A DNA stretch of 63,372 bases, the filler included, from Folioceros fuciformis (lineage: Eukaryota): assembly GCA_049999805.1 (NCBI GenBank). It is 4 parts of 3 records of this genome, joined end to end, with 100 filler letters (N's around TTAATTAATTAA, not from the genome) between each part and the next. Parts side by side here need not be neighbours in the genome. Positions count along the whole stretch, not along the records: positions 47,836 to 62,057 come from JBNGIO010006225.1; 3 more parts are not named here. One strand, given 5' to 3'. The translations under genes and the position numbers were made by a program. The notes beneath the pieces are model-generated. The model was not told the origin of the DNA. It saw nothing but the letters and a program-made list of their open reading frames with translations, and did no database searches. Each line of letters begins with the position of its first letter. Within the stretch, counting starts at the first letter, position 1. This document shows positions 21,998 to 62,157 of the stretch, piece by piece.

Positions 21998-23134
21998 TCA
22001 TTCAGGGGCCGGTGCCACTTCTTCCGCCTTGGCCCGCCGTTGCAGAAGGGCTTTGAAGATGGCAAACGATACCCAAGCATCCATGCACGCATATCTCAGC
22101 TGGGCTGGGTCCAGTACTCGCTTCGCCCAGTTACTCATCGTCACCCTCTTGGGTTTGGCCATGTCAAAGTGGATCACAAGTTTGGCCAGCTTCTTCAGGC
22201 CGATATTTTTCACTGCCGCCAGGCTCGTCAGCTCCACCTCGCCATGGCACCGCAATCCATAGTCCCGCTGCAGCTTCGACGTGTCGCCGGTGATGCCCAC
22301 CCCGCCCAGTTTCTTGTCCGGATCCTCCAAAAAAGCCGCCAGAGCTTGGGGCATGGAGTCCAGGAATAACATCTGCACTATCAGGCACTCGCCTGCCGAC
22401 GATATCTGCAGGACCGCCAACTTGTTGTCGGGCGCACCTCTGCGGAAAGTGGGCTTCCACTCGGCGTCCAGCCCGAAAAGGCTTCCGCTCTGCTTCCGCA
22501 CCCACTCATCCACCACGGCTGCCTCCCTCGTTAGAGTCACCGCCACCCTGTTCTTGTGCACCAGAACGTGCGTCTGGACCGTGCTGCAACCTGGCGCCGG
22601 CCCGAACATAGCACTGCTGAAAGTGATCCGGTCTGAATCGAACAGTACGGGCCACGCTCCATTACCCGAGAGCCCCTGCCCAGGTTGCAGGCCTCCTCCG
22701 CGAGACATACCCTCCTGCCCTTCCTCCTCCGCCTCGTCACAATACGAATCCGAAAACTCATCTGCCGCCGCCGGATGGTGTGACACCAGCTCTCGTTGCA
22801 CGTATCGCAACACCCTCTCCCTCACACCCTCCACCCATCCTTCCTCCTCCGCTGTATCCTGCGCCTTCCCATTCACGAGCCGCATATCGTCCGGTTCCGA
22901 ATGCTCAACCGCCGGCAACACCCCACCTTCGAGGGCCCTAAACCTCTTCCGGCAACTCTTACCCTGTGCGTCTGAGGACCCGTTCCTCCTTCGCCTCTTT
23001 TTGCCACAACGACCCTGCGTTTGGACCGCAGCCTTTACACAGCCGCTGCCTTCCCCAACGCACCGTGGCGCTGCTGAATCGCTGCTGCCGCTCCGCTCCC
23101 GTGCCATCCTACTTTCTCGACCCGGCATGCTCAT
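21998..23134 (-). CDS. Werner-syndrome-like DEDDy 3'-5' exonuclease (WEX-like), intronless
   Basis: ExoI GLDAEW, LAVLQIS, GVGITGD, MSNWAKRVL and ExoIII YACMDAW; basic/acidic N-terminal extension with NLS-like KKRRRR. Confidence 0.9.
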   Translation of the reverse strand: MSMPGRESRMARERSGSSDSAAPRCVGEGSGCVKAAVQTQGRCGKKRRRRNGSSDAQGKSCRKRFRALEGGVLPAVEHSEPDDMRLVNGKAQDTAEEEGWVEGVRERVLRYVQRELVSHHPAAADEFSDSYCDEAEEEGQEGMSRGGGLQPGQGLSGNGAWPVLFDSDRITFSSAMFGPAPGCSTVQTHVLVHKNRVAVTLTREAAVVDEWVRKQSGSLFGLDAEWKPTFRRGAPDNKLAVLQISSAGECLIVQMLFLDSMPQALAAFLEDPDKKLGGVGITGDTSKLQRDYGLRCHGEVELTSLAAVKNIGLKKLAKLVIHFDMAKPKRVTMSNWAKRVLDPAQLRYACMDAWVSFAIFKALLQRRAKAEEVAPAPE

Positions 23135-23443
23135 CCAAACCACAACGATCCCTTATACTTTGGCAAGACCAATCACACAAAACAAGGTACCATCCGAGCC
23201 GAGGTCTTAGGCCAAGCTGCCTGTCCCGCAACTGGGTACCACAGCTGAGCGAAAATCCAAACCCTCTTCACTGAAACTGTCTGGCAGAAACCATTGGTCC
23301 GCCGCCGACGCGCGCAGCTGCCCCCTCATTCCGCTCACGGGAGCGCTAGGGCTTGCAGCGCCCGGGGAGCCGTCCGGAGGGCAACGCCGGGATCGAAGGC
23401 TGTGGCCACAGTCGTTGTCAGCGTATGAACATATATATATATA

Positions 23444-38975: not shown

Positions 38976-39250
38976 GTGAAGTGCGGGGGGTGGGTCCGCG
39001 CCGTGCCCAAAATGGGCGTGGCCAGCCTAACAACCTCCAGCGTTGAGCACGGGGAGCGCAGCTCAACTCCGGATTCCACCCGCGATCGCTTGCTTTAGCC
39101 CGTCCTCGGGAGATCGTACATGCAATGTGATGATCGCTTCAAGCGGAGGCCGGCAGTCGCAGTGCCAGAGCGCGAGGTATCTATGCCACGCCGTGGGCCG
39201 CGACTGCTCTCGCAGCTTTGTGTTGCTCTTTGCCTCATGAGAGCCTAGAG

Positions 39251-42200
39251 ATGCGGCAACAACAACACCAACAACAGCAGCAAATGCGGGGGCAACAGCG
39301 GGCCATGGCGCTGCACCCGCACCCTCAGCTGCTGTTGCTGTTCATGGCCGTGGCCATGGCGGGCTTGTTGTCGGCGGAGGGAGCCTCCCCGGCGGAGCTC
39401 GCTGCGCTGCGGGCGGTGCAGGCGGCGCTCACGGATCCGCACGGGAAGATGGACACCTGGGTGGGCAACGATCCCTGCGCGAACTGGGCCGGGGTGGTTT
39501 GCGGCGCCACCAACGGGACCAATGCCAACACCACCGCGACGCCGGTGGTGAGCTTGGACCTGAGCCAGGGAGGGCTGACGGGTACCATCTCCCCCGCCAT
39601 CGGGACCTTGTCCCGCCTGCAGACGCTCAATCTCTCCTTCAACATGCTCACGGGGCCCCTCCCGCTCTCCATGGCCAGTCTCACGTCCCTCCAGGTGCTG
39701 GACTTGAGCATCAACCGGGACGTGGACGACAAGTCGAGTACAGGCCTCACCGGCTCCATCGCGCCAGTGGCTGGCATCCTCTCACTCCAGTACCTGCTGC
39801 TCAACACCAACGGCTTCAACGGCACGCTCCCCGCTTCCCTCGGCAACCTCCGGGAGCTCCAGTGGCTCTACCTGGACAGCAACCAGATCACGGGGACTCT
39901 ACCCTCGCAGCTGGGCAGCCTCCCTGCCCTCACCGACCTGTCCGTGTCCGACAACCAGATGTTGGGCACCATTCCCAGGCAACTGGGGACTGGAGTGGCT
40001 CCGCTCTACTGGCTGGGGCTGGCGCTCAACGATTTCTCGGGGGCGATACCCCAGGAGCTTGGGAACCAGACGGGGCTATTCTTCCTGGACCTGAAGGGGA
40101 ACAGGTTCACCGGGCAGCTTCCGAGCGAGCTCGGCCAGCTCTCTGAGCTGGAGTATCTCTATGTACAGGACAACCAGCTCACGGGCCCGCTGCCCCCGCA
40201 GCTGGGCGGGTGCAGCAAGCTGGTGGAATTCATGGCCTTCGGGAACAGGTTTACAGGAAGCATTCCCTCGCAGCTGTCCAACCTCACCCAGCTCAAGATC
40301 CTGTGGCTGTCTGGTAACAACCTCACCGGCACCATCCCGCCTGCGGTGGTCAACATCTCCTCCCTCACCACCGTCAACCTCGACTCCAACAAGCTCACGG
40401 GGCGGGTGCCCCCGACGGTGGGGTCGCTGCCCAACTTGCAGTATCTCACTCTCTTCGACAACCAGCTCACGGGTGGACTGCCGGCTCCCTTCCGCTCCCA
40501 AGTGCTCAGCATCCTGGATGTGCACGGGAACCCGGGGCTGGGGGGCAGCATCCCGGCGGGGCTGTGCAAGGGGAACTCGCTCACCGTGCTGGCGCTCTCC
40601 AACACCGGGGTTGGGGGCGCCATCCCTCCCGACCTGGCCGCCTGCAGGTCGCTGCAGAGGTTTCGCGTGGGAACCGGATCCCTTGTCGGAAGTGTCCCCG
40701 GCTTCTGCGGCTCCACCCCGCAGCCGCATTTGAATTACGTGGAGCTCAGCAGCAATGATCTCGCAGGCGAGGTCCCTGCCAGCTTCGGGAGCTGCCCCGG
40801 GCTGCAGACACTGAAGCTCGATGGAAACCACCTGACCGGGAGCATTCCGATTGAGTTGGGGACCGCGTCCAATCTCACGGTGTTGGATCTGTCGAGGAAC
40901 CAGCTCTCGGGCAGCATTCCCTCTCAGCTCGGGGCTCTGTCTTCGCTTTCCAGCCTGGCCTTGTCCGGCAATGTTCTGTCGGGGGCTGTGCCGCGGGATC
41001 TCTTCCAGCTCTCCTTCTTGCAGACGCTCCGACTGAGCGACAACCAGTTGACGGGCCCGCTGCCCCCGTCGGTCTCGGGGTTGCAGAGGATACAGGATTT
41101 GGAGCTGGGCGGGAACAGGTTTGCGGGCAGCATTCCTTCGGAACTCGGGAGCCTCACCAGCCTCATCTACGGGCTGAATCTGAGTCACAACGGGTTCAAC
41201 GGGAGCATCCCGGGTACCCTCGGTGGGCTGTCCAGGTTGCAGAGTCTGGACCTGTCTTACAACAACCTGTCGGGTCAGATTCCGGGGTCTTTTGCAGGGT
41301 TGGCGGCTTTGACCTTCTTCAACGTCTCCTACAACCAGCTCTCAGGGCCCATCCCGGACGCCCCCAACCTGAAAAACTTCCCTCAGTCTTCTTTTCTGGG
41401 AAACACGGGGTTCTGCGGTAGTTTACTGTCCGACTGTTCCGGGGGCCAGGTTAGCAGCAGAAGCAGCAAGAACAAGCTTAGCACAGGCGCGTTGGCGGGT
41501 ATTATCGTTGCCGTGGCTCTGATATGTGTGGGTGTTCTGCTGGCGGTCTGGATTTCCTGCTTCGATAGCCACCCCGTTTCTGACGATGGACGTGTCACGA
41601 AGCGGAAGAGCTGGAGCGCGCCCCTGCTGGGTGGTCTGTTCGGCAAGGGCAGGTCGTCTCGTCCCGGCCCTGCCGCCTCCGCGCTTCTTCCGGACTTGTA
41701 TCAAAAGTTCACGTTCCAGGAGATCATGGACGCCACCAACAACTTGAATGACAGGAACCTCATTGGCCAGGGCGGGTTCGGGAAGGTGTATAAGGGGTTG
41801 CTCAAGTCGGGGCAGGAGATCGCCGTGAAGAAGATGACTGTGGAGGAGGAGGATCCCGACGTGTTTCAGAGCCACATGAGGGAAATCCAGACGGCAGGCC
41901 AGGTCCGACACCGTAACATCGTCAGGCTCATAGGCTATTGCAAGCATAACGACACAGCGCTCATTCTCTACGACTATCACCCCTTCGGCAGCCTTGGGGA
42001 TTTTCTGTACAAGAAGAAGGAGAACAGCCCTGACCTGAGCTGGGAGCTGCGCTACAAGATTGCTCTGGGCACAGCGCAGGCCATCTCCTACCTCCACTCG
42101 GATTGTGTGCCTCAGGTTCTGCACAGGGACATCAAGAGTAACAACATTCTTCTGGACGAAGAGTTCGTCCCCTATGTCACGGATTTCGGAGTTGCTAAGC

Positions 42201-42762
42201 TCGTGGCTCGTGTGGACGGAGAGAGAACAGCACCCATGTCTGTGATTGCGGGATCTGTGGGCTACATCGCCCCTGGTGAGTCCCTCTTGTGCCTCCTTTT
42301 GAAACTTCTGTCTGCGTACACTGCGCAACCAAATTGTTTGAAGACAAGCCTAGGGCTTACCAGTTGTGTGGAAACCTTGCAGAATACACTTACACATTGA
42401 ATGTAGGGGAGAAGAGTGATGTCTACAGCTACGGGGTTGTGCTCCTGGAGCTTTTGACGGGCAAGATGCCTGTGGATCCCAGCTTCGAGGAGGGGAGGGA
42501 CTTGGTGCATTGGGTGAGGAACAAGCTGGAGAGTAGCGACACCATCGATGTGGTGCTGGAGCCCGGTCTGCGGAAGGCTATGCAGGGTTCGGAGGCTCAG
42601 GAGATCTCCGCCACACTCAGGGTAGCCATCATGTGTACCAGCGAGACTCCCTCTGACAGGCCCACCATGAAGGAGGTGGAGGATATGTTGCTGAGAGTGA
42701 AGAGTTTCTCCAACCCCGATCTCCTGGCCAGGAACAGGAGCAGGTTGGAATCGCTCATTTGA
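39251..42762 (+). CDS. Leucine-rich-repeat receptor-like kinase (subfamily XI-like); exons 39251-42275, 42383-42762
   Basis: Signal peptide, CxWxGVxC cap, >20 plant LRRs, GNxxFCG cap, TM helix, GQGGFGKVY, AVKK, HRDIKSNN, DFG, GSVGYIAP|EY with a single kinase intron. Confidence 0.96.
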
Positions 42763-46239: not shown

Positions 46240-47835
46240 GACTGAGATTTTGGAAGCCGCAAATGCAGGTCCCGCTGCAGCCCGTGCCACCTACGCCTCC
46301 CGACACTGGCACCACTAGACGAGGGCCAGTTCACAAAATTGCAGGACTGGCACACATCACGCTGACACAGCTGGTACAGGACCGGGCTTAGCTACGAGCC
46401 TAGCGAAGGTGGAGACTCGCTAGCGTGAGCCCCAACCTTCGTTAGGTTGACGTGGAAACTTTCTCTCACTGCCCGGGCTCTGGAAATAGGTCTGTGAGTA
46501 ATTCCTTGGAAAACAAATCGTGAACCTCCGAAACGGCGTGTGGCCTGTCGTGTGTCTCCTTGCGTGTAGACCGCGTGTGCATGAACGACTCCATATGCAA
46601 AAGTCCGTTGGAATTTGGGCACCGGACTTCTTCCACCTTTGTGGGTCCAGGTCAAGTTCTATATAGAAAGCCAACTCGGATCCTGAAAGCCACCTTGGAC
46701 TACCCTCCCCGGAAGCCAATTTCGACCCGGAAGCTAACTTCACTTTAAATACCATTTCCTGGTATTTTTTTGCAGAATAGTTATAAGTTTTTATCTATAC
46801 AATAGTTGAAGTATTTTTTTTCTGTGGGACTTCATGGTATGAATACCACCAAGCCCAATTATCATAACATTGTGCCATAAGCTGCCTATGGAATACCGAT
46901 ATGGACAGGGTTCTTTCCCAGAACTTTAGGGCGGCGGTATAGCGGACCAAAGACTTTTTTTTAACACATATTTATACGCGAATATTCTATAGAATCTATG
47001 GAATATTCCTATAGCCTACCTTACCATATCATCCTACCCTACATATACACGGTATAGCAAAGTTTTTTTTGATAGTCTTTAAAGAATCGTCCTCGACATA
47101 GTGTGTTAAGTTTGTGGCACAGCATTTCGGGTTTAGGGTGCTCCTTGGGTTTTAGGGTTTAGAGCTTTGGCTTGACCAGCTCACGAATTAGCCTACGCGA
47201 ACCTGAGGCATAGAAGCGTGGCTGAGGCATGGAAGAAGAAGCCATGAAGTGTGGCAAGGAACCCTAAACCCAAAAACCCATGGAATGTGCACAGCCATGA
47301 AAGCATGGCCGTTGTGAAACCCTAAACCCATTGGGGAAGGCCCCAATCCTGAAGCAACCTGCCACAACATGGAAATTGAAAACCCTGAGCGTGTGTGGCA
47401 GCAAAAGTTGTGTGTGTATCACTTTTTGTCCCCCATCGGAACGCTTCTATGGCCGCATCTTGCGCAAAACTTGAGACCGTATGTAGCACAACAAAATATT
47501 TGTAATAGAGCATATGACTATATGGGTATTCCATATTCTTCTCCATTCATATTCATTCTTTTTTTTAGTTAGCTAGGGTGGCGTGCAACATGACTAGGTG
47601 GGTGTGAGTGCTTGGGAGGGTGTGGGTAGGGAGCCGGCAAGTGGGCGACTCTGTTGCAGGCCTGATTGGCGCAGGCCAAGTAAGCATGGGGAGTGGGCCT
47701 GTTTGGTGCAAGCCAAGTGAGCATGGGAGCGAGCANNNNNNNNNNNNNNNNNNNNNNNNNNNNNNNNNNNNNNNNNNNNTTAATTAATTAANNNNNNNNN
47801 NNNNNNNNNNNNNNNNNNNNNNNNNNNNNNNNNNN

Positions 47836-48238
47836 GGGTGCTGTCAAGCGTATTTACAGGTACCTTAGAGGAACAATGGACTATGGCCTCCACTACGTGT
47901 GCAGCAGTAAGAGGGAGTTCACACTTACCTCGTATGCAGATGCTAATTGGGCTTCTGACTCCGATTCTCGGAAGAGTCTTTCAGCACATGTGTTCTTGTT
48001 GGCCAAGGGTGCTGTTAATTGGTTGTGCAAGAAGCAGACCTCACTTGCCCTCTCGTCCACGGAAGCCGAGTATAAAGCCCTAACAGACGCATGCAAGGAA
48101 TTAGAATGGGAGAGATAGTTTCTGGACTCAATCAACTTACCACAGGAAGGTCCAACTCTGCTCTTGTGTGACAATATGTCTGCCATAGCTCTTGTGTCAA
48201 ATCCTTGCTTTCATTCAAGGACTAAACACATTGAACTC
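47836..48238 (+). mobile_element. Ty1/copia RT-end/RNase H fragment, interrupted by the downstream LTR
   Basis: KRIYRYLRGT..YADANWASD..RKS..SSTEAEY..CDNMSAI..FHSRTKHIEL, then TGTTAAAGG (LTR start). Confidence 0.92.
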
Positions 48239-48485
48239 TGTTAAAGGAAATTACCCTTAGCCTATGTCTAGGGTGATTTGATGAACAGGTTAGAAAAATC
48301 TCATTTAGGGTTGACTAGTGAACCGACACCATTGGGATGTTTTTTTAAGACCGTTTACATTCTTTGTAGGTGAGATAATGTATGATTATTCAATAAGAAA
48401 TATATACATGTTTTTGTACAAGAGTTCTGGCCTCCCGGCTCTCCTCTAACACCTATCATAGATGACTATCATCAGTTAGTTCACA
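48239..48485 (+). repeat. 5' LTR (247 bp)
   Basis: Aligns to 54922-55169 with 8 substitutions and 1 indel by manual count. Confidence 0.95.
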
Positions 48486-48498
48486 TGGTATCAGAGCC
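48486..48498 (+). promoter_or_regulatory. Primer binding site, tRNA-Met(i)
   Basis: TGGTATCAGAGCC directly after the LTR. Confidence 0.95.
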
Positions 48499-49644
48499 TA
48501 ATCCCTCTATGCCTTTTGGCATAACCAATGCACCATGTATCTGGTCTGCCAGGATCGCTCGACATGCTACTGTAAAAGAACAGGAAAAGCATATTTTAGC
48601 GATCTACAGAATGGCATCCCTTTTGTTCGGAAAAATAATCCAAAAGTTTAAAGGAATGTCGTACCTTTTCTCTGGGAGATGAACCAAGAGGCAAGATGCC
48701 TCGAAGATCTGCAAATGGAAGAGGCAACGTTCTTCGACGAGAACACTTATATTGGCAGAACCAGAACGTGATCAACACAGAATCACATGTTCAACGGTCA
48801 AGGACCAACCGACAATGAGGGAGACAAGATTCACATTGCTGTGAAAGGAGGAGAATCACTCCACCACCCTGCCAGCGCCCAATTCGATCTGCAACCTACA
48901 CAATTCCACCATACAGAGAGAAACCCTTAGAGGCAATTCTGATTAATGTGGTATTTAAGCAATTGTCGGTGCTGAGACAGGTGGAGAAGATTCAGTCGCT
49001 GCTATTACAAAGCCAAGAAGATATTGTTGGCAACATCGAAGAACTGAGATATTCTCTGGAGCAGACAGCAATTGCTGGATCAGAAATCATAAAGGAGGAT
49101 ATGAAAAGCATGGTGATTCTCCTGCAAAATATGAGTATGAGATTTTCTGCCGCCCATGGTGACAGATCTGCCCAGATTCATTGATCTCCTCCTGCTTCCG
49201 CTGCTGGAGAGCTGGTGATGGTGTCTACCTCTGGTGCTGTTGAGGCTATGGATTCCAAACGCTGTCTTCTGCAAGGTGTCCTTTCACCTCTAGGTATCTC
49301 TTAGAATGTGGTTGGTCCACCTGGAAAGACATCAAGAAAAGATGGTTAGGTTTCAGCTGAAACGCCATACTTAAATAATTCAAATTAAGTTGTAACGTGT
49401 TCATACCTAATCTCTAAAGGATAATTAAGGTTTTTTTTTTCCTAGCAAGGAGGGATCTCAAGGAGAGGGTGGGCATGAGGAGGCCAGGATACGACAGTAC
49501 CCCTTCCCACTCGAACATACCCCTCCTCAGATCACTCCCTGCCATGCCCTAGTTAGTCTGTAACACAAGAGGCAACCTATAGACATAACATACTTACTTG
49601 TGTTTCTAGAGCCATAGCTATAGTTACCTTGTTAGTTTTTTTTT

Positions 49645-52600
49645 ATGTCCGCAGGATCTCCCCTCTCAATTGACACACTGATCGGGTTGTTCCAAGCTCT
49701 TAGCCTCAGACAACTCGCAACCAACGTTAATCAGAACGTTCAGAACATCCAGCCTGTAGCTATGGTAGCCGCGGTACCCAAAGCTACATACACATCAGAA
49801 TTGAAGGAGAAAGATCGCTTCAATGGCAGAAGGTATCCAGTTTGGAGAATCAGAATGAAAGCTACCTTGATAGCTCGACGCGTGTGGAAAATCATAGATG
49901 GAACCATAAAGAAACCATATCCAAATGCAAATCCACCTCCAACAGTAGATCAAATTGCTGAATGGGATGAATTAAATGGCATTGCCATTGCCCTGTTGAT
50001 TGGAGGCCTGGATGCAGATCTCATACCAGAAGTTGAGTTCCTAGAAAACGCTTCTGATATCTGGTCACAATTGGAAAAGACCTATAAAGTCACCAATGTG
50101 TTAACTCTTTGTGCCATCAAACACGAATTCTATAGCTTAAAAATGAAAGAGGGGGATAAAGTGGTGGCATTTACAAGTAAGTTTCAACACTTAAAGGCGC
50201 AGATAGCTTCACTAACTGGAACCAAGATGGATGAACTGGATGCTGTGGCTGAGCTGCTCACTCGACTTCCCCCTTCATATCAGTCCTTTGTCACTAGTCA
50301 AAATGGTCCTCTACGCACTGCTGCTGTTGTTGCTGCTGGAGGCGCTGCACAGATCACCCTTGAGGAGGTGATAGGCGCCTTGTATCAGGAAGTGCAGAGT
50401 CGCTTATTATCTTCGACTATTCCTAAGAACAGGACAAAGAAAGCGTTAGCAGCTGGTCAGAGAACATTTAAAGGAAAAGGCAAGGCAGGAGGTAGACCTC
50501 ACCAAACTTCAGACTCTGTTGGTCCTTCCAAACGCCCAGGAAACTGCAATTGGTGCAGCATAGCTGAGCACTGGGCCAGAGAATGCAAGAAAACGAAGGC
50601 TAGGGAACCAAAACGAACTCCTAAAAGTACTGCAACTGTTGCATTTAAGGAGAAGTCAACAGGTGACTCCAAGCCAGTGGTGAAAATCCTTACAGTCTGC
50701 CTAGCTCGATCTGTATGTGATGAAGACGGATGGTACTTGGACTCTGGTGCAACCTCGCACATCTGCCGAAACAAGAGTCAGTTCTTTACTTTAAAGACAT
50801 CATGATCAGGTCTCAGAAAGAGTCCTCTTGGGAGATGAAAAGAATCAATCTAGTCTCCAGATTACAGGCTATGGAACATGCAAATTCACCCTTGATGATG
50901 GGTCGATTCTTACCTTGGATGGTGTTCTCTATGTTCCCTCCATGGCGAAGAACCTGGTTTCCCTCAGTAAGCTTATGCAGATGCGTGTATATGACATGAA
51001 AGCCAGTGAAGATGCTTGTCTTTTCTACAAAAGATCAGAGCCTTCTTTGCTGGCATTCAAGGGCACTCTCGACCATGATCTCTACAGACTTGACATCTGT
51101 ACCCTACGTCATAAGGCAAGCCTTGTATCCAGTCAGCCCCAACGTCTTGCTGTCCTGTGGCATGCACGGCTAGGGCACGTTAATAAGAGGAAGTTAGTGG
51201 ATATGTCATTGCAAGAATGTCACCTTGAGCCACTACCTCAGGTTTTTAAGGACTTACCATCCTGTGAAGCTTGCATTGTCGCTAAACCAAAAGCACACCC
51301 GTTTCCTGTATCAGCAACATACAGAGCCACTACCGTTTTAGAATTGGTCCATGCAGACTTCTCAGGTAAGATACATGTTCCCTCTTTAGGAGGATCCATT
51401 TACTACCTCTGCATTACCGACGACTATTCACGATACACCTGGACATTTCCTATGCAACTCAAGAGTGATACCTTTGATCTGTTTCGAGACTGGTTGTTGA
51501 CTGCTGAGAAGCAGACAGGCCAGTTCGTAAAATATCTTAGGACAGATAATGGAACTGAGTTTGTGAATATGGCGTTCAACACCTTCCTGCAAGAGAGGGG
51601 GATCCAACGTCAACTTACTGTTCCGTATACCCCACAACAGAACGGAGTAGCCAAGCGCAAGAATCAAACATTGCTGGCGATGACAAGAAGTATGTTGTTG
51701 TGGGCAAACTTACCTCAGAAATATTGGGCAGAGGCCATAGTTGCAGCCACATATACTCTGAACCGACTGTTCACCAGTTCCGTTCCCTCGAAGACCCCTT
51801 ATGAAGCATACTGGAAACGCAAGCCCAGCTTGCTCCACTTACGAGTTTTCGGCTCCCGTGCTTTTGCTCTCATTCCAGAGGAGAAGCGAAAGAAGCTGGA
51901 CCCGAGAGCCCAAGCACTTATCTTCGTTGGCTACAGTGAACAGTCCAAGGCATATAAACTCTATGACCCTGCAGAAAGAAGAGTGGTATTATCTCTCTCA
52001 GTTACTTTCCTAGAGATCGACAGACCTCTCATCATAGGACAGACAACGACTGAGGGAGACATTCTACCTGCTACAGTGGAGGATGTGGTCTATTTTCCAG
52101 AAGATGATTCACAAGATGAGGGAGATGCCAATGCAATCTAGGAAATTCCCCTCATTATTCCACCCGTAGCTCCTATCCCGCCTGTGATTCCACAGCCTGC
52201 AAATGTTTTAGTCCCACCTCCACCTCCAGTCCAGAATCCTATTTTAGATATGGAGGCAGAAGGAGATGTAGATCATGAGCTAGTCGTTGAGGACTTACCC
52301 GTAGGGGATGAATAGTTGCCAGTCGTCCTTGATCCTGAACCAGATCCTCCCCTACGACGTTCCACAAGAAATCGCCCTCCTCCAGACCAGTGGAAAGAGC
52401 CGAGATATGAGTCAATTGATTTCAGAACGTCTTATGCTGACATCTGCAATTCTGCATCAAGTACTATACACCTAGAACCTAAGACTCTTACAGAAGCCTA
52501 TTCAGGGCCTGAACGAGAAAAATGGAAGTTTGCAGTGGACGATGAATACAACTCTCTTGTCAAAAACAAAACCTAGCAACTATTAGACCTCCCACCTGGC

Positions 52601-54057
52601 AGAAAACCCATATCCAGCAAGTGGGTGTTTAAGCTAAAACTTAATGCAAAAGGTGAGATTGCCAGATACAAAGCCAGGTTAGTAGCACGTGGATTCACAC
52701 AAGTTGAAGGTTTAGATTACCAAGAGACGTTCTCCCCTGTTGTGAGAGCGCAATCTATCAGAATGATAATATCCCTTGCAGCAGAATTTGATTTGGACTT
52801 ACAACAAATGAACGTTTGTACTGCCTTTCTATATGGAGCACTGGATGAAGACTTATATATGATGTAGCCTGAAGGCTATGAAGACCCTAAGCATCCCAAG
52901 AAAGTCCTCAAGCTACTGAAGACAATCTACGGCCTAAAACAGAGTGGCCGTGTTTGGTACCTAACCATTCATGAATATCTGATTAGTAGTTCTTTCATAC
53001 AGAGCGCTGCAGACAGTAATGTATACAAGTTGACAAAAGGTGATGACTATGTTGTTCTAGCCTTGTACGTCAACGATGTAATACTTGCTACAAACAACCA
53101 AAAGCTGCTAGCAGAAGTTAAGGAAATGCTAAACAGCAAGTTTGAAATGAAAGACATAGGCGAGCTTAAGTTTTGTTTGGGGATCCAGCTCTTAAGAGTC
53201 AGAGCAGAAAGGCTTATCATAATACATCAATATCAATATGTTCAGGAGCTGTTGCAAAGGTTCAAATTAGAACAGGCGAGACCTTCTACTACTCCCTATG
53301 CTTTGGGGACTAAACTTACTAGCCAGCAGTGTCCTCAAGCAGCTGACGAAAATAGGAAGATGTCACAGGTGCCCTACAGGCACGCCATAGGGAGTTTAAT
53401 ATTCATAGCAAACTGGACACGCCCCGACATACAGTATTCAGTCAGCACCCTATCACAGTTTCTAGAAAATCCTGGCAGAGTGCACTAGATTGCAGCAAAG
53501 CGTGTATTCCGGTATCTAAAGGGGACACAATGCTATGGGCTTGCATTCAGAAGCAGTGGTGAGGGCAAGCTTACGCTGAGGGGGTTCACTAATGCAGATT
53601 GGGCGTCAGATACTGAGTCCCGTCGCAGCTTGTCCACATATTGTTTTCTTCTATCCTCTGCAGCCATCAACTGGAGCTGCAAAAAGCAAACTTCAGTGGC
53701 GATATCCTCCACAGAGGCCGAATATAAAAGTTTAACAGAAGCCTCTAAGGAGGTTGAATGGGAGTGTACCTTCTTGTCTGATCTCGAACAAAAGCAGACA
53801 GCGCCAATTCCCATTCTGTGTGATAATATGTCAGCAATTGAGCTTGTGGCCAATCCCAAATTTCACGCCAGAACCAAACATATTGAAATACAACATCATT
53901 ATATAACGGATGTTGTTGGCGTGAGATAGTTAAGGTGAGCTATGTAGCAACAGACCAAAACACTGCTGATATTCTCACGAAAGGCCTTCCTAAGCACAGA
54001 CATTATGAACACATGGAAGGACTCGGGCTACTTGACTTCTCAGAGTATTTGGGATAG
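49645..54057 (+). pseudogene. Copia gag-pol polyprotein, disrupted
   Basis: CNWCSIAEHWAREC knuckle, WYLDSGATSH protease, WHARLGH / LVHAD / RTDNG / TPQQNG integrase, YKARLVARGF RT, SSTEAEY RNase H. Frameshift at ~50800, several TAG stops, and catalytic D>N and E>K changes. Confidence 0.93.
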
Positions 54058-54921
54058 TGAGCTGCAAACTTATCTGGTTGAAGGGGGGTGGAAGCCTTGC
54101 TCCCTGATTGTGCTTTTCGCACAAGTTCTCAACCAGACAGCCTGCAACACTATGTCCGCCTTGGAGTTAGTCCCTCTCAGTCTTTGACACACATGAGCTG
54201 CAGAAGGATGAAGCATCACACTTACCTAATCTTCTGTCCAACTCGTGCTTTTTTTTAAGTCAGCTCTAATTAAACCCGACTTCTCTCATCCTGTTCAGCA
54301 GCCTGATGGTGTCTTCAAGCTGCTTCACAAGACCTTGTCTTCCCTCTTCACTTTCTTCAGGACTTGGAGGTTTGGATTTCCTAGCGTCCTTTTTCTTCAC
54401 CTTCCCTATCACTAGGGACACATACATCTCTACGTGGTAGCTGCCTAGTTGCACATATTGTCCCACGATATGTTTGCTGTCCCACTCCCAGCCTCTCGCG
54501 ACTTCGTCCCGTCCTAGGGACACCACTTCTTATGAGGAGGCTTCTATGTTTGAGGTTGTGGGCTGGGGACTAGCAACTCTTTGCCTCTTATTCGCAGGAG
54601 GCTGTGTGTGAAGCTCCTTGCCACTGCGAGTTCTCATGACAGCCAAGCGCAGCAGATGAAGAAACACAAACAGTACCAGCTCAATTGCAGCAATCTTGGA
54701 AGCAAGATTGGTTGCCATCTTGTGCACCGACACCGACTTCTTGTTACGTCTCCTCGGCGCTGTCCTACAGAATTCGAAGGGGCGTGCTGCCGCCAGTTTC
54801 GCGTGAAGCAGAGCGTGATGATTTTGTTTTTAATTGCTCGCTGTCCTTCCTTATGTCCTGTCCTTCAGTCTCTGTGCACGCCAACTTAAGTTGCGCTGAC
54901 ACGGCTACACCTAAGAGGGAG

Positions 54922-55169
54922 TGTTAAAGGAAATTACCCTTAGCCTATGTCTACGGTGATTTCGTGAATAGGTTAGAAAAATCTCATTTAGGGTTGACTA
55001 GTGAACCGACACCATTGGGATGTTTTTTTTAAGACAGTTTACATTCTTTGTAGGTGAGATAATGTATGATTATTCAATAAGAAATAGATACATGTTTTTG
55101 TACAAGAGTTCTGGCCTCCCAACTCTCCTCTAACACCTATCATAGATGACTATCATCAGTTAGTTCACA
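54922..55169 (+). repeat. 3' LTR (248 bp)
   Basis: Direct repeat of 48239-48485, preceded by the PPT. Confidence 0.95.
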
Positions 55170-55918
55170 CATATGCATGCGGCAGCGGCGTACCCTGGAG
55201 CCCGTGGCTCTGAGCGGATAGCTCTAGACCAAACAATGTTCCCACAAGCACGTTCTTTTGCTCCCTCATATCTATTTGAACCAATACAATACACTCTTCT
55301 GAAAGCGTCTCAACAACACCTTATTTTTCCCAACCCAAGTAAGAATGGCTCCGCGATTGGAGATGTGCTCTCAATCTGTTCGACATCAAAATGCGCCTAC
55401 AAAAAGGTTTCTTGTTATGTCCTGCTCATTTTTAAAAAACGATATCGCACCTCTCTAAATCCTGGTTTACCAAGCAGTCTCAGACATTGTCTCATACAAC
55501 ATATCTTTCTATAATCAAGGGAAATGCGAAGCTTTGAACACTTAGCCTCTGGTATTGTTGAAGGTCTCTTCCGCCGATATCATCGATGATGTAAGGGTGT
55601 TTCGATCATTGACTCCGACGCCGGCTTCCGATTAAAGGTCGACCGTTGGCTAGGTGTTTGTCTTGAATCCGAACACTCTTGACTGCAACGCCCTTCTTCA
55701 TTTGCATTCATGAAATCGTTCACTTCCTGCATATGTGTTCCAGTACCTAGGCCCCAACCTTCTGTGCCACTCCCTCTCGAGAACCTACGAACATCGGCGT
55801 TTCTCTGTAGCGGTGTAGTCTTCATCACTGTGCCCACAAATGAATGTCGTAGAGATGACGGGCTTGGAGAACTATGCACTTCATCCAGAAGACTGAGACA
55901 GATTGGTGACGACCTCAA
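55170..55918 (-). pseudogene. Probable N-terminal part of a Sola/DUF7869-like DNA transposase, truncated by the Copia LTR
   Basis: Read-through of ORF 55580-55918 gives KICCMRQCLRLLGKPGFREVRYRFLKMSRT*QETFL*AHF...FLLGLGKIRCC*DAFRRVYCIGSNRY. This fits the CCxxxC..R..F....Q..FL / xCxxAFxxxYxIxxxR pattern I associate with these transposases; the catalytic domain is not in view. Confidence 0.45.
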
Positions 55919-56225
55919 CTCCTCAAACTAATGTATGGAAGGATGGTCTCCTGGGGATTAAAATCATCCACGGATTAGTAAAGCAGAAGCAAATCATAGT
56001 CATGTGAATCCAAGGTCACAAAGAATTGTCTGCTCTTCCAAACCTTTGTTGCTACTATCTTCATAGAAATTCTCCATACCGCAACATGATGATGAAGGTT
56101 TGTTTGCCATGGAAGCATGAAGAACAAAGTGTGCGTATACACTTCGGCTTGGCTGGCTTTCAAATGTCCAGCGTTGTAACAAGGCCCTACACCAAGTCCC
56201 GAAGCGCGGGTGATTAATGCAATCA

Positions 56226-56378
56226 GAACGTTAGACCAAAAATAGAACTAGCTCTTCTGCGAGAATTGACGCTGGAAACGACCATTATCATGCTATTTCG
56301 ATTTGAACGTTTGAGTCAAAATAGAACTAACTGTTCAGCGAGAATCACCGCCTGATACGACCTGCATCGCGCTATAAA
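56226..56378. promoter_or_regulatory. Two diverged 79-bp direct repeats ending in TATAAA, between divergent ORFs
   Basis: gaacgtt..caaaa(a)tagaacta..gcgagaat..acgacc..gctat at 56226 and 56305; TATAAA at 56373-56378, ~85 bp upstream of ATG 56461. Confidence 0.55.
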
Positions 56379-56460
56379 TGCATTGGCGGTCGGTAACAGT
56401 GGATATTCGGTTTCAGCTGAACAGTTCGTTTTCGAATTCTTTCTCGTACAAATCCGGTGC

Positions 56461-59400
56461 ATGGGCACCTCTTCTCCAACTGCTTCCATCACCAGAAAAG
56501 ACTACGTGCTATGCAACTCTTCCCTTGTTGGGTGGACACCAATGGCATCTAGTCGTCGTAGCAACAAACTTCAGCTTGTGGAGAGGGATGTTTAGGCGCT
56601 TCCACGAGTACGAAAGCAAAGGAATGCCAGGAGAGCAACTGTGCGAGCATCGTTTGGTCACAACACTGACAGAGATGGACACCGACCTACACCACCCGCT
56701 GGCGAAGAGGCTACTCCCATCGCCCAGACCGCCGGAGGAAGAAAGGATAACTCAGGTGGGAGCGTGAGAGCGTCCAATTCAAAAGCAAGCGAAGGACCTT
56801 TGAACCACATTCCGCTAACTCTGAATCACAGAGGCAGTACAAGAGGCAGTCAAAATTACAACATTCTGAATGCCTACAACTTTGTAGAGCGATTGAGACT
56901 GAAGAAGTAACAAGACACTCTGGCCAAAAGATTCAACACTGATAAGGAATGGTTTTTGATAGCTGAAGATGAGCCTGATGACTTGAACTTGCCGGGGTTT
57001 CCTCTTGTTGCTCTATGGGTGAATGGGTTTCAAGGTTTGGTGGAGGACAAAGCAGGAAGGGCAGGATGGATTCTTTGTGCGCCTGTGGACAGTGAAGACG
57101 ATGAAACTCACTTGAATTTCATCCTCACCCGTCACCCACCAAGCCACATTACGGATGACTACGACAGTCACAGTTTAGTGGTTGTGAATGTTGCGAAAGC
57201 CATACCTTGCCGATGGGAACCGCTATGGATGAAAAACACGCTAAGAGATTGTCTGTTCTTGAAGGATGTAAGTGGTCTTATAAGCTTAAAAGGTTAAAAT
57301 GTAATTACCAAGAATTATCATAAACCCTAACTTTTGTGATTGTTTTTTCACTAATTAGGGTGGAGAACAGTTTTGTCGAACAATTTTGCGGTGTGTAGGG
57401 GACGCGGTGCTGAAGAACAGGGCTCTTGTGGTGTGGCTTGCAGGGGAGCGGCAGCGGAAGACGGCGCAAGCAGAATTTGGAGTCCTCAACACTCATGTAG
57501 TAGGATTCGTGAAAGACAATCAGGACATGCTTCGTATGCAACCTGAGATTTCAGAAGAAAAGGCACCCTACGTTCACGAACTCAGCGAAGAGCAGGAAGT
57601 CAAGGAGATGGCTCAATACTCCTTAGCTGAAGACAGTTTGAATGATGCTCTGGAGACTCCTCGCAATTCTTGCGAGGGTGATGCATCTGAGGAGGAGTCT
57701 CCTGTGGAGATCACTCCACCGCGAAAGAGGGTGACCTAGGGGCGCCGGTCTACTAGCGCACCAGAGCAGCGGAAGAGGAAAGCATCAGCGTCTCCTGCGA
57801 AACAGCGGAAAATGACATTCGGTGAGGCTGTTGTGTGCAAGCTGAGTATTTTGCTTTGGATTTGTTTCTAGCTTCCTGGATTCTGTTGCTAAAACATTGA
57901 CCATTGACCCCGATGTTCCTCCTCTTGTATGTCTCCACAGCCGAAACGGCGAAAAGCAGCAGGCACTGCAACAAGAGGGCAAGCAGCGAATCAAAAGAGA
58001 CGGAAGGGCGGGGCATTGCACCAGGTGCAGCCAGAGCCAACCCGGGCATTGGAAATAGACACAGAGAGGTTTGAGAGATAGCGCAAGATGAGGACTACCT
58101 GAATGGGATAAGGAAGAAGGCCCATGCCAAGAGGATAAGGTCCACAACGTTTGATCTACATGTGGATATTTTGTATCTTGCCTCTTTTATCACCTCTGAC
58201 GCACAAATAAGGCAGGCAGATGAAGCTTGGATGAAAAGCTTAGTGAGGCAGATGTAGGCTGGGTCCGTTAAGGAAGGGATCTTGCCCCTCCTGTGTATAA
58301 TTGATCCTAAGCAAGCAGCGAGCAAGGAAGAAGTTTCCTTGGATAGGATCACGGCGCAGCAGTACTACATGGGAGTCTTAGGGGGCAACCACTGCTTTGC
58401 AACCATGTAGAAACTCCATTAGATGTTCCCCGCAGAAGATAAGTATGAATGGATGGAAGGGCAAGTGTATGGTGGGTTGACAGAGGAAGAGATGAGGGTT
58501 CTTGCTATCGACCACAATGTCTATGTAGACAAGCGGAAGAGGATGGGATTTATTGAGCAGGTGCGATATATCCATGACGAGCTTGACATTTTCTTCAGGA
58601 ATCATTTAGGAGAAGAGAAGCCACCAGTCAAGTGGAAGTTCAACCTATACAAGTTGCTAGGGATGATTGACGAAGGTGGAGATCCCCACGACACAGACTG
58701 GGTGCAGAAGATGGTGGACAGGCAGACCTTGCCATATCGGGTAGCTAGATGCACAGGTGTTTTGTGGGACAATGTGGATAGGATCTTCAGAATGTGGGAA
58801 CAGTGTGAGCTCCCAGAGCAGAAGAGCATGGTAACAGCCGGGACCACAAAGAGGGCAAAGGCAAAAAGGAAGACAGGAGATTCTGCCTTGCAAAGTTCTG
58901 TTACCCAGGTTACCGAAGACAGCAGCAGGAGGCCAGGAGCTATGCAAGGTAGGCCATGGAGAGCCTTTCAAGGCGGCCCAACAGGTGTCAAGGGAGAGGA
59001 GATGTTGATAGCGGTGACGCAGAAGGTCATCTAGGGGAAGCTTCAACTGCGGGACATGGACATTGAAGTGGGGAAGAAGAAGAAGATACACCTGATCCAA
59101 CATGCCTTCCGACTGGCAATGAAGTGTGAAACATTTGAGGAGGCCGAAGAGATGTACCCGAAGCACACAAAAGATGGTCATCTCTTAAAATTCCAGACTG
59201 CCTTCGCCAAAGTTTTTCCATTCATTTCTCGTGTTACTTATTCGGTTCCTTAAGCAGGAGTGCGCCAGTAGACCGACACACTCTTGTCTGCATAAGCAGG
59301 AGTGCGCCAGTCTACCGGCGCACTCGAGATGGCTGAGGCTCAAGTGCGTCGGTCTACCGACGCACTGCTGCAAGAGCGGGCCCAAGTGTGCCGGTAGACC

Positions 59401-60805
59401 GGCGCACTCAAGCCCTGTGGAGCTCGAGTGCGCCGATCTACCGGTGCACTAGGCCTTGCACTGAGTCCAATGCGCCAATAGACCGGCGCCTTGGAGCTCC
59501 AGCGGTCTCGAGTGCGCCGGTCTACCGGCACACTCATGTATGTTCATGCTAAAGTAGCTGTATCGGTAGCCAGACTAACGTTTACCATTCTGGTTGCAGA
59601 AACCCTCAGAGATAGCGGACTTGAAGTCCCTCCCAAAGCCTTTTCATGATTTCGTTTATTCGGCAAAAAACTGGAAAAGGATGGAAGAGGAGAAACAGAA
59701 GTTGACGGCAGCGGATATGGAAGCAGGGCTGCCAGATTTTTGGGTTTCAGCGAGTAACTCAAAGGTAAAATACCAGGTTATTCAAAGGAATGTACTAGAA
59801 ATGAAGGCATTCCTTGTCAAACGACCCTACACGCTGCTATTTGCAGACCTGCCTCGGGGCTTACAACGTCATGAGTATGACAGGCAAATGACGGTGGAAG
59901 ATTTGGATGAAATTCTCCAAGGGTTTAGTGAATGCACCTCGAGCAATATTTTTAGGGTTATTCTAATGCACGGAGTAGACATGATTTCGGAAGCAAAGGA
60001 GGTACTGCGGCCATGGTGCAAGAAGGGCAGCATCCAGACATTGGTATGGGAGAAGACGAACATACCCCCAAACGCAGGAGCTGTGGAGACAGTTGAGTAT
60101 GTCACGGTTGGGAGTGCAATTCACACAGAGGCTCAGGAATCGAAGGCTGCACTATTTGCGAATCATGGATTTCTGCTCCCAAGGGTTATAAGGCATGGAG
60201 TGGTGGTGACGAAGCACCTCTTTCATTCAGCAGATGCGCATATTGTCTCCCCTTACCGAAAACCATTAGGGTTGATGCGTATGCTGATTAACATGTTTTT
60301 GTGTGAGGGAGACTAGGTGGTTGATGCATGCGCAGGCTCTGAATCTCTCCTCCAAAGTGCAGTTCAACAGGGAAGGCATGCGGTTGCGATCGATGTGGAT
60401 GTCAGGTGCACATCATATATCATGCAGCGGATTATCGGGCTAGGGTCTTTGCCTGACGCAGATGAGGACATTACTACAGAGGCGTTTACGTGAGGCCCAT
60501 CAAAGTTTTGGGCGAAGGAAGTGTGCGGTGATGGGAGCGTGGACCACAAACTAATGGTATTCAGTATGTTGGGTAAGAAAGAAGAGGACATACACCAGAT
60601 TGATGATAGGCTTGCAGAAGACCTTTACGCCATCACTATCTGGGATGAGAATTGCACCCTACCGCCTCAAACTACAGAGGACCCCAACTTTTCAGTGCTT
60701 CGAGTGGGTACCGATGACTTCGGCAATACAGATGCACAACGCTTGAATGATTTGGATGTAGTTGTGGACTCCGAAGCCAACCAGGATGATCCTGTTTTCG
60801 TTTGA
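56461..60805 (+). pseudogene. ParB/Srx-like domain + beta-class N6A/N4C DNA methyltransferase fusion; predicted exons 56461-57267, 57359-57821, 57941-59211, 59600-60805
   Basis: Three GT-AG introns join all ORF pieces into one 1,249-codon frame with 10 point stops and no frameshift. ParB-like QIRQAD..LVRQM / VLGGNHC(R)FA / VYGGLTEEEMRVLAIDHN. MTase TLLFADLPRG, LVWEK, PYRKPLGLMRMLI..EGD*VVDACAGSES..QGRHAVAIDVD. Confidence 0.8.
59258..59535. repeat. Array of seven 26-bp palindromes (GAGTGCGCCGGT-AG/CT-ACCGGCGCACTC) at exact 42-bp period with 16-bp variable spacers
   Basis: Units start at 59258, 59300, 59342, 59384, 59426, 59468 and 59510, inside predicted intron 59212-59599. Confidence 0.95.
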
Positions 60806-61027
60806 GAATACACTTGATTTAATTTGAATTGGTATAATCTTAACTTGAAGTACTTTGAAAAATTTGACCGGCGCACCATATGTTTAGGGTTGCAAAATAT
60901 CAAGTTTTGCATAGAAGACTCAAATTGTTTTTTTTCAGTAATTTTGGTTTTATTGACCTATGCAGCAACAAAAAAATTCAGATAAAATGCGCAAAATGGG
61001 CGTTGTGGAATCCGCCTGTCTGGCTTA

Positions 61028-61500
61028 GACCATGTTCTCTTGTCTCATTCCCCAGAGGGCCTCTAAAAGCAACTAGACATATTGTCAAGCTTTTCTGAGG
61101 CTAGAGACTTGGAGGTAAACCTCAAGCAGACCAAGGTCATGTTCTTCGATCGGCGGGATCCAGTTAACCACAATCTAAAGTTCTTCTATAATGGCCAGCC
61201 GGTGGAGGTTGTGCGGTCTTATGTCTACTTGGGTGGTGCTATCTATGGTCCAACACTCCAATGGAAGCTCTCTGCCTCAACTCATATTCTCAAGGGTGTG
61301 GCATCGGCATGTGGGGTGCAGAGACAATGCACTCGGATGTACATCAAGGACATCCCCACCCAACAATGGTTGTTTAACACAGTTGTGGTTCCTTCAGCAA
61401 TATATGTAGCGGAGTTTTGGGGACCTTATCTCTCACTCGATGATCGGTCCAAAGTGAAGGAAGTTCAGACATCCTTTCTTTCTTCAGAACTCCGTAGTCA
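61028..61500 (+). mobile_element. LINE (RTE-like) reverse transcriptase C-terminal fragment
   Basis: VLLSHSPEGL*KQLDILSSF..LEVNLKQTKVMFF..VEVVRSYVYLG..LFNTVVVPSAIYVAEFWG. Confidence 0.85.
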
Positions 61501-62157
61501 AGCGCTCTTGGGCTGGATCAGTATTGGGATGGGTGACCTCCCGAGAAGTCCCGGTGCTGCACGCTTCCTTTCTCGCTTCCTGCAGAACTTTCCAATTTTT
61601 GCTTTTTTGCTCTTTCTTTTTCTTCCTGTTTCTGCTTTTTCTTCTTTTCTTGGGTCGTTCCCCCATAATAGGTAGCAAACGCTCAAACCTTTTTCTCCCT
61701 AAACAAGGGAAACAACGAAATGAAAAAATCTTCTACCTTTTTCTACCTATTTCTACCTAAAAAAAGAATCTTTTTTCCCAAAAGGCATGTAGTTTAATTC
61801 TGTTTCTTGGTGTGTTTCCTTCTCATAAAGCTGTTCCCTTCTTTGCGGCTTTTGTAACCTTGAAGGCAAGTAGTTTGTGTAGTCCTTTTTCGTTGCCTAT
61901 TGTTTTCTTTAAGGGCATGTACTTTAGTTCTTTCCTCTACGTGTTCTTTTCCGTGTCTTTCTATGATTTAGGCTTTCCTAAAACCCATGTACTTTAGTTT
62001 ATAAAGGCCCCTAAACCCCCAAAAGCTTAGGCTTTCAAAACAAACTTTACTTTATAGNNNNNNNNNNNNNNNNNNNNNNNNNNNNNNNNNNNNNNNNNNN
62101 NTTAATTAATTAANNNNNNNNNNNNNNNNNNNNNNNNNNNNNNNNNNNNNNNNNNNN

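Follow-up and report, generated by a model that had tools for sequence, protein, structure and literature searches.

A decayed many-copy repeat in Folioceros fuciformis that probably encoded a ParB-like domain fused to a beta-class DNA amino-methyltransferase

We analysed a stretch of 63,372 nucleotides (nt) of DNA from Folioceros fuciformis (GenBank assembly GCA_049999805.1; hereafter the window), which joins four parts of three records with 100 filler letters between each part and the next, and in which positions 47,836 to 62,057 come from record JBNGIO010006225.1. On the plus strand, positions 56461-60805 hold the remains of a single gene with three introns, whose third exon is predicted to specify a ParB-like domain and whose fourth exon specifies a DNA amino-methyltransferase (MTase). 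The window is plant nuclear DNA, carrying a plant leucine-rich repeat (LRR) receptor kinase and Ty1/copia frames, and DNA of the same sample contains many diverged copies of the locus. We consider it likely that this is one dead copy of a plant repeat that is dispersed in many copies and bears a single three-intron ParB-MTase gene, a reading that takes in the mechanism proposed below.

The four exons of the gene model total 3,747 nt, a number divisible by three, and each of the three gaps between them starts with GT and ends with AG. The parts of the gene are the following.

56461-57267, plus strand: putative exon 1 (N-terminal region), within the span of the repeat family; interrupted by stops at 56593 and 56908
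57268-57358, plus strand: intron 1; 91 nt, GTAAGT...TTAG, GC content 0.26
57359-57821, plus strand: putative exon 2, with an acidic and basic low-complexity tail; stop at 57737; contains a palindrome copy at 57742-57759
57822-57940, plus strand: intron 2 as first proposed; 119 nt, GTGAGG...CACAG
57941-59211, plus strand: exon 3, made up of a basic stretch, the ParB-like N-domain, a helical region and a linker
58078-58079, plus strand: private 1-nt deletion (frameshift); every family contig across the site has one more base
59212-59599, plus strand: intron 3; 388 nt, GC content 0.57; donor damaged in the window copy
59600-60805, plus strand: exon 4, with the MTase domain between a linker and an acidic tail; ends with a TGA at 60803, after earlier stops at 60314 and 60491

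Ten internal stops (seven TAG, one TAA and two TGA) interrupt the 3,747-nt frame ahead of its terminal TGA. Stops were nonetheless strongly frame-specific: the chosen frame has two in exon 1 (versus 18 and 13 in the other frames), one in exon 2 (versus nine and six) and two in exon 4 (versus 19 and 24). Because of this bias, and because exon 4 matches a profile of its family (E = 7e-52, see below), the reading frame is far from chance. The sums, the gap ends and the frame-specific stops thus agree with the proposal of the initial annotation that a series of fragmentary open frames joins through three GT-AG introns into one frame. Intron 1, with a GC content of 0.26 compared with 0.48-0.53 in the exons, occurs in genomic copies of the family (depth was present in all bins), and one contig of run X4, a run that we only guess to be RNA, matches at less than 90% likeness and is collinear across this intron. 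The ATG at 56461 is the start chosen initially and is putative. Exon 1 had no Pfam match and no similarity to the 114 proteins compared with it; its identification as a myosin head in the ESM Atlas was rejected, the recognition value of 2039 falling short of the 2300 mark and Pfam lending no support.

Comparison with other copies of the gene revealed how far the copy in the window has decayed. For this comparison, contigs from runs X1 and X2, both of DNA from the same sample, were placed on 56400-60850 at a likeness of at least 80%. All family contigs crossing 58076-58078 carry an extra base (in run X1, a depth of 58.1 after 58078 and of 28.1 after 58076, of 86.2 in total), so the 1-nt deletion is private to the window copy, and the earlier statement that the frame contains no frameshift does not hold. 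Because of this deletion the frame that runs from 57941, which is stop-free over 57941-58078, is likely to be the ancestral one there; the frame chosen initially has a TGA at 58072, and about 46 of its codons were probably misread. The likely ancestral frame misfits the phase of the proposed intron-2 donor; the phase of that intron likewise misfits the downstream family frame, and some family copies have a 14-nt insertion right before its acceptor. Further stops in exon 3, beyond the one at 58072 that belongs only to the first frame, lie at 58255, 58408, 58420 and 59032. The donor of intron 3, GTTTTT at 59212, is a remnant: five contigs in X1 and five in X2 continue ...GGTAAGTTTTTCC after 59213, where the donor is GTAAGT, and three relatives (P0108, P0011 and P0022) are collinear across the exon 3/4 junction without extra residues. 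The three proposed introns keep their GT-AG gaps, the second having a phase at odds with the family and the third a damaged donor. With ten in-frame stops, a 1-nt deletion and a broken donor, this copy is dead, as was originally concluded.

The same placements establish that the locus is repeated. We found 1,205 contigs on 56400-60850 in X1 and 1,125 in X2, those of X1 comprising 120 at a likeness of 99% or more, 259 at 95-99%, 454 at 90-95% and 372 under 90%. Depth was present in all 30 bins, introns included, with up to 22 distinct contigs per variant letter. (Note that depth is not copy number, so we claim only many diverged copies.) The window holds one copy, and the repeat is therefore not tandem there; a search for terminal inverted repeats, long terminal repeats (LTRs) and further fragments of the ParB-MTase element detected none. 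Of the 40 variant sites listed (of 1,069, along with 12 of 30 indels), 25 show C or G in the family but T or A in the window, including those of the stops at 58408 and 58420, which argues that this copy was eroded chiefly through C-to-T and G-to-A transitions, as would be expected of a plant repeat that is silenced and methylated. The locus is thus a copy of a many-copy plant repeat, and it may have been truncated by its neighbours. Of the original suggestion that the gene was borne by a mobile element, the repeat status stands, with more than 1,000 contigs; the hallmarks of a transposon were not found within 55170-61066.

Two domains and several motifs could be placed on exons 3 and 4.

58141-58530, plus strand: approximate extent of the ParB/Srx-fold N-domain, as aligned with residues 114-245 in the model of the Chara protein P0106
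58381-58401, plus strand: motif GGNHCFA
59729-60472, plus strand: beta-class amino-MTase domain, by Pfam N6_N4_Mtase, family profile and alignment
59846-59857, plus strand: motif IV, DLPR
60254-60265, plus strand: YRKP
60323-60346, plus strand: motif I, DACAGSES

The identification of exon 4 as an amino-MTase domain of the beta class, in which motif IV precedes motif I, is solid. The exon-4 translation, with stops read as X, matched Pfam N6_N4_Mtase (PF01555) over residues 219-274 at 31.1 bits (cut-off 26.7, E = 3e-7), and its relatives match the same family at 27-66 bits. In this translation DLPR is found at residue 90, and D-x-C-x-GS-x-S comes at around residue 250, confirming the positions initially reported for D-L-P-R at 59846 ahead of the motif-I stretch. 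A hidden Markov model (HMM) of nine relatives matched exon 4 of the window with E = 7e-52, covering 241 of its 254 positions (12-252). An HMMER pass of 1.84 billion representatives returned 95 proteins at E<=1e-3, the best at 7e-36 with 32% identity; when the exon-4 translation was used in a word-based search for homologues, none of 2,351 candidates obtained a score. Among solved structures, the relatives' profile found the DpnA-type M1.HpyAVI (1.3e-11) and also CcrM and MboIIA. Consistent with these findings, an AlphaFold2 (AF2) model of P0005, an intact relative 32% identical to the window (32-row alignment, predicted local distance difference test (pLDDT) score 70.4), matched MboIIA (9e-13), CcrM, M.BceJIV, RsrI and HpyAVI in Foldseek at E values of 1e-12 to 1e-11, and the N4-cytosine (N4C) enzymes N4CMT and PvuII ranked next after these N6-adenine (N6A) folds. 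The beta-class assignment made at the outset is upheld by a Pfam score above cut-off and by an intact relative that folds like MboIIA, CcrM and RsrI.

The window does not conform to the motif IV pattern (D/N/S)-P-P-(Y/F/W): it reads D-L-P-R-G, keeping the Asp and the second Pro and losing the aromatic residue. Among the 95 HMMER matches, motif IV is DLPRG in five, D[ILFVAM]PYG in 26, DPPY in 13 and D.P[HFS] in seven, the other 44 being fragments or without a match, and canonical DPPYG occurs in the two most distant fused members (P0052 and P0077). Because DLPRGL is shared by a monophyletic clade, to which P0005 belongs, and the distant members keep DPPYG, it is a derived, conserved clade state and not damage; the departure from DPPY seen initially is real and is no lesion. 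The clade retains NPYQKP, W-x-x-D-x-C-x-GSG[ST] and an acidic residue after strand 2. Differences confined to the window copy are of another kind: it has R at 60258 where the family majority has Q (YQKP), and GSES in motif I where the family has GSG[ST], the majority letter at 60342 turning the E into the Gly of GSGS; its stop at 60314 falls where 13 of the 14 other rows reaching that column have Trp. In our estimate, the DLPRGL clade could about equally well be an enzyme with an altered pocket or a non-catalytic DNA binder that binds S-adenosylmethionine (SAM).

It is rather improbable, in our view, that the whole family is non-catalytic and that both of its domains bind DNA or chromatin, as a reader or as a factor interfering with silencing. 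Such a role would fit the drift of motif IV from DPPY to D[ILFVA]PYG, DIPHG and DLPRG, and the loss of the ParB Arg motif in land plants (described below). It fits poorly with the conservation over long branches of the motif IV Asp and Pro and, outside the DLPRGL clade, Tyr, with the maintenance across the family of NPYQKP, of motif I (D-x-C-x-GSG[ST]) and of the acidic residue after strand 2, and with the DPPYG that P0052 and P0077 retain despite their distance.

Exon 3 is collinear over about 375 residues with proteins of Chara braunii, which it matched in BLASTP at 5e-24 (P0106, 25% identical) and 5e-16 (P0011). The AF2 model of P0106 has a mean pLDDT of 65.7, with values of 65-92 across residues 100-250, and all seven of its Foldseek matches at E<=1e-3 were Noc or ParB; KorB, Spo0J, PadC and sulfiredoxins came next. 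Using VIA-align, we found that the model superimposes on the N-domain of Caulobacter crescentus ParB with a Z score of 10.1 and a root-mean-square deviation of 2.3 Å over 98 residues, that 23 of 376 chains reach Z>=8, and that the top 34 rows are all ParB/Srx-type proteins, the longer alignments extending through the DNA-binding region. An HMM of the ParB region matched the window at 6e-126, partly by construction, since the window translation is one of its seven seed rows. Sequence profiles gave a single hint: the Ginkgo protein matched DUF6551 with E = 0.019, which falls short of the cut-off of that family. These models support the prediction that exon 3 encodes a ParB/Srx-fold domain, at the level of the fold and by way of the Chara relative, and to that extent bear out the ParB/Srx-like core recognized in exon 3 at first inspection.

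The region of the ParB Arg motif reads GGNHCFA in the window, GG[GD]H[SC]REA in the Chara clade, GGCNSVEA in Ginkgo and AGTHSLIE in Adiantum. Given the Chara sequences, the Cys of GGNHCFA is native and the position of the Arg is taken by Phe in the window, contrary to the earlier idea that GGNHCFA lies one CpG transition away from a GxHR motif. Because the Arg of the ParB G-x-x-R-type motif is absent from land-plant members, a clamp switched by cytidine triphosphate (CTP) is doubtful for them. Separately, the nearest neighbours of P0106 in the ESM Atlas were fungal DUF3723 clusters (score 0.95, 182 of 256 features). DUF3723 is described as an auxiliary gene family of Starship giant transposons (PMC11162782). 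We detected no Pfam support for a link between DUF3723 and P0106 at E<=10 and found no paper tying DUF3723 to ParB; that DUF3723 may be ParB-like is offered as a lead only.

At least 18 relatives match both the ParB-region HMM and the MTase HMM (the seed rows do so by construction). Chara, Ginkgo and Adiantum each have both parts in a single protein, the Riccia and Cymbomonas models match the ParB-region profile in part, and P0108, a member of the DLPRGL clade, reads through the exon 3/4 junction with the same spacing. The conclusion that the gene fuses a ParB/Srx-fold domain to a beta-class amino-MTase is therefore supported, and the placing of both domains in one gene by the initial annotation is borne out by the fused relatives and by the collinearity of P0108 across the junction. 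Species names, obtained for 11 of 30 proteins and for two further Chara proteins, were Chara braunii (six), Adiantum nelumboides (four), Riccia sorocarpa (two), Ginkgo biloba (one) and Cymbomonas tetramitiformis (one); within these few names all members are from outside the flowering plants, and their records bear no annotation beyond "hypothetical" or "DNA methylase N-4/N-6 domain-containing". One Adiantum protein, P0109 (720 residues), begins, by eye, with a stretch like a retrotransposon integrase, ahead of its ParB-MTase part, and is probably a chimeric annotation across nested repeats. A search of the articles in PMC under Creative Commons licences and of bioRxiv preprints returned no description of a streptophyte family of this kind, and the green-plant ParB-MTase family is apparently undescribed.

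In a maximum-likelihood tree of 37 MTase-domain rows, from which four near-identical rows and matches not spanning HMM positions 45-210 were left out, a clade of Chara proteins (99/99) is separate from one of land plants (95/92), within which Ginkgo and Adiantum (96/88) are sister (97/93) to the monophyletic DLPRGL clade of the window (99/93). The family is old within green plants and not a recent capture. This tree is roughly congruent with plant phylogeny, Ginkgo grouping with the fern, and together with introns of spliceosomal type and the lack of a transposase or terminal repeats within 55170-61066 it would suit a vertically inherited streptophyte host gene family, for example of a chromatin or DNA-modification factor, with the window copy a duplicated pseudogene and not a mobile element. 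We think such an origin unlikely in view of the more than 1,000 contigs at 80-99% likeness in one DNA sample, which show up to 22 variants per site and cover introns and flanks, of the several, often fragmentary, models per named genome (six in Chara, four in Adiantum and two in Riccia), and of the heavily decayed state of the window copy between other repeats. Nor do we believe that the locus is a bacterial or phage contaminant of the assembly. A domain pair typical of prokaryotic mobile elements might suggest as much, with a probability that we regard as negligible, and we rejected contamination on the strength of the GT-AG introns, the plant copia flank, the hundreds of diverged copies in the DNA runs of the organism and the plant proteins that are its nearest relatives.

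Searches of viral and metagenomic sequence returned no relative in a metagenome scan with P0011 or in IMG/VR scans with P0077 and P0052. A tblastn search of 50,697 phage records with a full-length relative matched 301 records, every one on the MTase part at 24-29% identity, and none of the 301 covered 80% or more of the full-length plant relative; a phage origin of the fusion as such is not shown by these records. Phages and large DNA viruses often encode ParB and amino-MTases, and the locus might on that account be seen as what is left of a DNA virus (giant-virus-like or other) that had a ParB-MTase gene and became endogenous. Phage ParB-terminase loci are also described as encoding MTases of this sort (Iyer et al. 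2015, PMC4738411). A viral relic is, however, very unlikely: the copies have three introns in common, the 63-kb window contains no other viral gene, two queries found no IMG/VR relative, phage matches extend only to the MTase part, and the family tree follows plant groups.

Intron 3 of the repeat contains an array of palindromes, of which further traces lie nearby.

59259-59576, no strand assigned: palindrome array built of 42-nt units; the 24-nt palindrome is present in seven good copies and a degenerate eighth
57742-57759, no strand assigned: single palindrome copy within putative exon 2
60866-60876, minus strand: exact half-palindrome GTGCGCCGGTC, 60 nt past the stop codon

The palindrome of the array is AGTGCGCCGGT-CT/AG-ACCGGCGCACT, and each copy is followed by an unrelated spacer of 18 nt. 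Pairwise identity is 0.70 among palindromes and 0.32 among spacers, with 8-11 of 11 arm positions paired. The palindrome core has 11 matches in the window, as against 0.01 expected, all of them within the element, and the length differences seen in other copies of the element come in steps of 42 nt (one such skip is of 126), indicating that the number of units varies. Elsewhere, the palindrome occurs 21 times in 596 Gb of prokaryote genomes, each time singly and never in an array, and not at all in viral contigs; we take the prokaryote occurrences, whose named hosts are mostly actinomycetes and other typically GC-rich groups, to be chance or terminator-like. The layout, a GC-rich 24-nt palindrome every 42 nt with unrelated 18-nt spacers, is CRISPR-like and lies within a plant intron. 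The 2-nt centre of the palindrome alternates between CT and AG, and the unit at 59343 has matching changes on both arms that keep 11 of 11 pairs.

We propose that an intact copy of the gene would yield a protein with an N-terminal region, a ParB/Noc-like N-domain followed by a helical DNA-binding region, and a C-terminal beta-class SAM-dependent DNA amino-MTase. The ParB-like part would bring the protein to DNA, the obvious candidate site being the 24-nt palindrome array in the element's own intron 3, and the MTase part would methylate an exocyclic amino group, with SAM as the donor. Adenine N6 is a likelier acceptor than cytosine N4, given the D-x-P-Y-G motif of the family and the N6A enzymes that are its nearest solved folds. 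In the subclade of the window, the stacking Tyr has given way to Arg (DLPRGL), the SAM-binding motifs being retained. A bolder version of this proposal, which we think doubtful, is that plant repeats from Chara to Ginkgo carry a plasmid-like module, in which a ParB-type protein would load on its own parS-like palindrome array and the fused MTase would write N6-methyladenine (6mA), or N4-methylcytosine (4mC), on the DNA of the element, marking it or shielding it against host silencing, the Tyr-to-Arg change of the subclade then conferring a new substrate or a reader role.

Several observations weigh against the reading that we prefer, that of a dead copy of a mobile repeat whose product would be directed to DNA and methylate it. 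Only by copy number does the locus look like a mobile element; within 55170-61066 we found neither terminal repeats nor a target-site duplication, and no gene for a transposase, an integrase or a reverse transcriptase. The ParB assignment leans on the model of a Chara relative built from only seven sequences: no ParBc Pfam match was obtained at E<=10 in six proteins, exon 3 had no match among PDB sequences at E<=1, and the relatives' profile retrieved from the PDB only MTases, plus chance antibody chains. Moreover, the G-x-x-R-type Arg is found only in the Chara clade, the window (with its Phe), Ginkgo and Adiantum all being without it. In DPPY enzymes the Tyr stacks on the flipped base, and the change from Tyr to Arg in motif IV removes that residue. 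Exons 1 and 2 had no homologue among the relatives compared and no Pfam family, and the palindrome can be put forward as a binding site of the ParB part as a candidate only, by pure inference.

Fused ParB-MTase forms are common in phages, and the ParB-associated beta-class MTases of phages and plasmids are like the plant gene in pairing a ParB/Srx fold with an N6_N4-type domain, in having motif IV before motif I and in being orphan MTases without a restriction partner. The plant gene differs in being nuclear, many-copy, split by three introns and provided with a long N-terminal extension, in the drift of its motif IV from DPPY, and in that no phage record spans both parts. MTases of the ParB-Tls (ParB-terminase) locus have been described, along with haptophyte MTases derived from them (Iyer et al. 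2015, PMC4738411). The same account describes fusions of an HTH (helix-turn-helix) of the ParB type to a chlorophyte-type Dam in certain chlorophytes and chytrids (Iyer, Zhang and Aravind 2015, PMC4738411), which are likewise eukaryotic proteins that join a ParB-type module to an adenine MTase of prokaryotic ancestry; as characterized there, however, the MTase is M.EcoKI/TaqI/Dam-like, whereas the plant family belongs by Pfam and fold to the PF01555 beta class. The chlorophyte-type family was reported from those two groups only, and no streptophyte family is known to us from that paper, although its supplements might list one.

Marchantia DN4MT1 and bdelloid N4CMT are also PF01555-type amino-MTases of bacterial ancestry in a eukaryotic nucleus, and N4CMT was among our structural matches. 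DN4MT1 is reported to carry the TSPPY motif of N4C enzymes (DN4MT1 preprint), and N4CMT is described as a chromodomain enzyme. Whereas these are low-copy host genes with (T)SPPY and no ParB domain, the plant family has Asp in motif IV, a fused ParB domain and many copies; we rejected membership of the DN4MT1/N4CMT group because motif IV of the family has Asp and not the Ser of S-P-P-Y. Retrotransposons of charophytes and dinoflagellates have been described that contain C5-cytosine MTases (de Mendoza et al. 2018, PMC5890265). They resemble the present case as streptophyte repeats or transposons that encode a DNA methyltransferase of their own, and differ in that theirs is a C5-MTase, whereas here an amino-MTase occurs with ParB and no reverse transcriptase or integrase was seen. 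With the bacterial CTP-dependent ParB, Noc and KorB clamps the predicted protein would share the fold of the N-domain and the DNA-binding region that follows it. These clamps have palindromic sites, and parS, NBS and OB are called to mind by a short palindrome repeated inside the element; they differ in that the window and other land-plant members lack the Arg of the nucleotide motif and that no partner ATPase is present.

The existence of enzymatically deposited 6mA and 4mC in plants, and the identity of any writers, are largely open matters outside Marchantia sperm, and the family offers named, intact candidates that combine a D-x-P-Y-G pocket with a built-in DNA-targeting domain, namely Chara GBG86584.1, GBG75370.1 and GBG66685.1 and Ginkgo Gb_37443, with the 24-nt palindrome as a candidate target sequence. 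Few repeats have a DNA methyltransferase gene of their own, and the family contributes one of the amino-MTase kind; in the clade with a conserved Tyr-to-Arg change, nature has in effect run an experiment on the beta-class catalytic pocket. Were the writer indeed borne by an element, it would give land plants their first case of a transposable element that encodes DNA amino-methylation, and would be a concrete candidate for the disputed 6mA writer of plants.

The surroundings of the gene agree with the plant transposable-element nest described initially, as judged by two neighbouring features.

39134-42400, plus strand: plant LRR receptor kinase; LRRNT_2 cap, many LRRs and kinase in one open frame of 1,088 residues
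48239-55169, no strand assigned: Ty1/copia LTR element with gag, beta-barrel, integrase and SH3-like domains

The ParB-MTase locus starts just downstream of the copia element. The end repeats of the latter, 48239-48485 and 54922-55169, are 96-97% identical, which suggests that its insertion beside the dead gene was fairly recent. Past this upstream element the stretch contains host-like genes, so the ParB-MTase element does not continue beyond it. A 202-residue frame at 61067-61675 that by eye resembled the tail of a non-LTR reverse transcriptase was dropped, having no Pfam match. Runs of N occupy 62059-62157 and about 47790-47840 of the window. Two open frames on the plus strand, 5916-8690 (924 residues) and 8956-9951 (331 residues), match no Pfam family at E<=0.001, a weak match to DUF2383 (E = 0.04) being their sole Pfam trace. 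On the minus strand, the frame at 21998-23152 contains a 3'-5' exonuclease domain (DNA_pol_A_exo1) and that at 31045-31935 the N- and C-terminal domains of UPF0261. The DNA of the LRR receptor kinase is GC-rich (0.59-0.61), and its kinase seems to resume after a short gap in a second plus-strand frame at 42280-42762. Just upstream of the proposed start codon of the ParB-MTase gene, at 56215-56372, lie two tandem units of 79 nt that are 71% alike.

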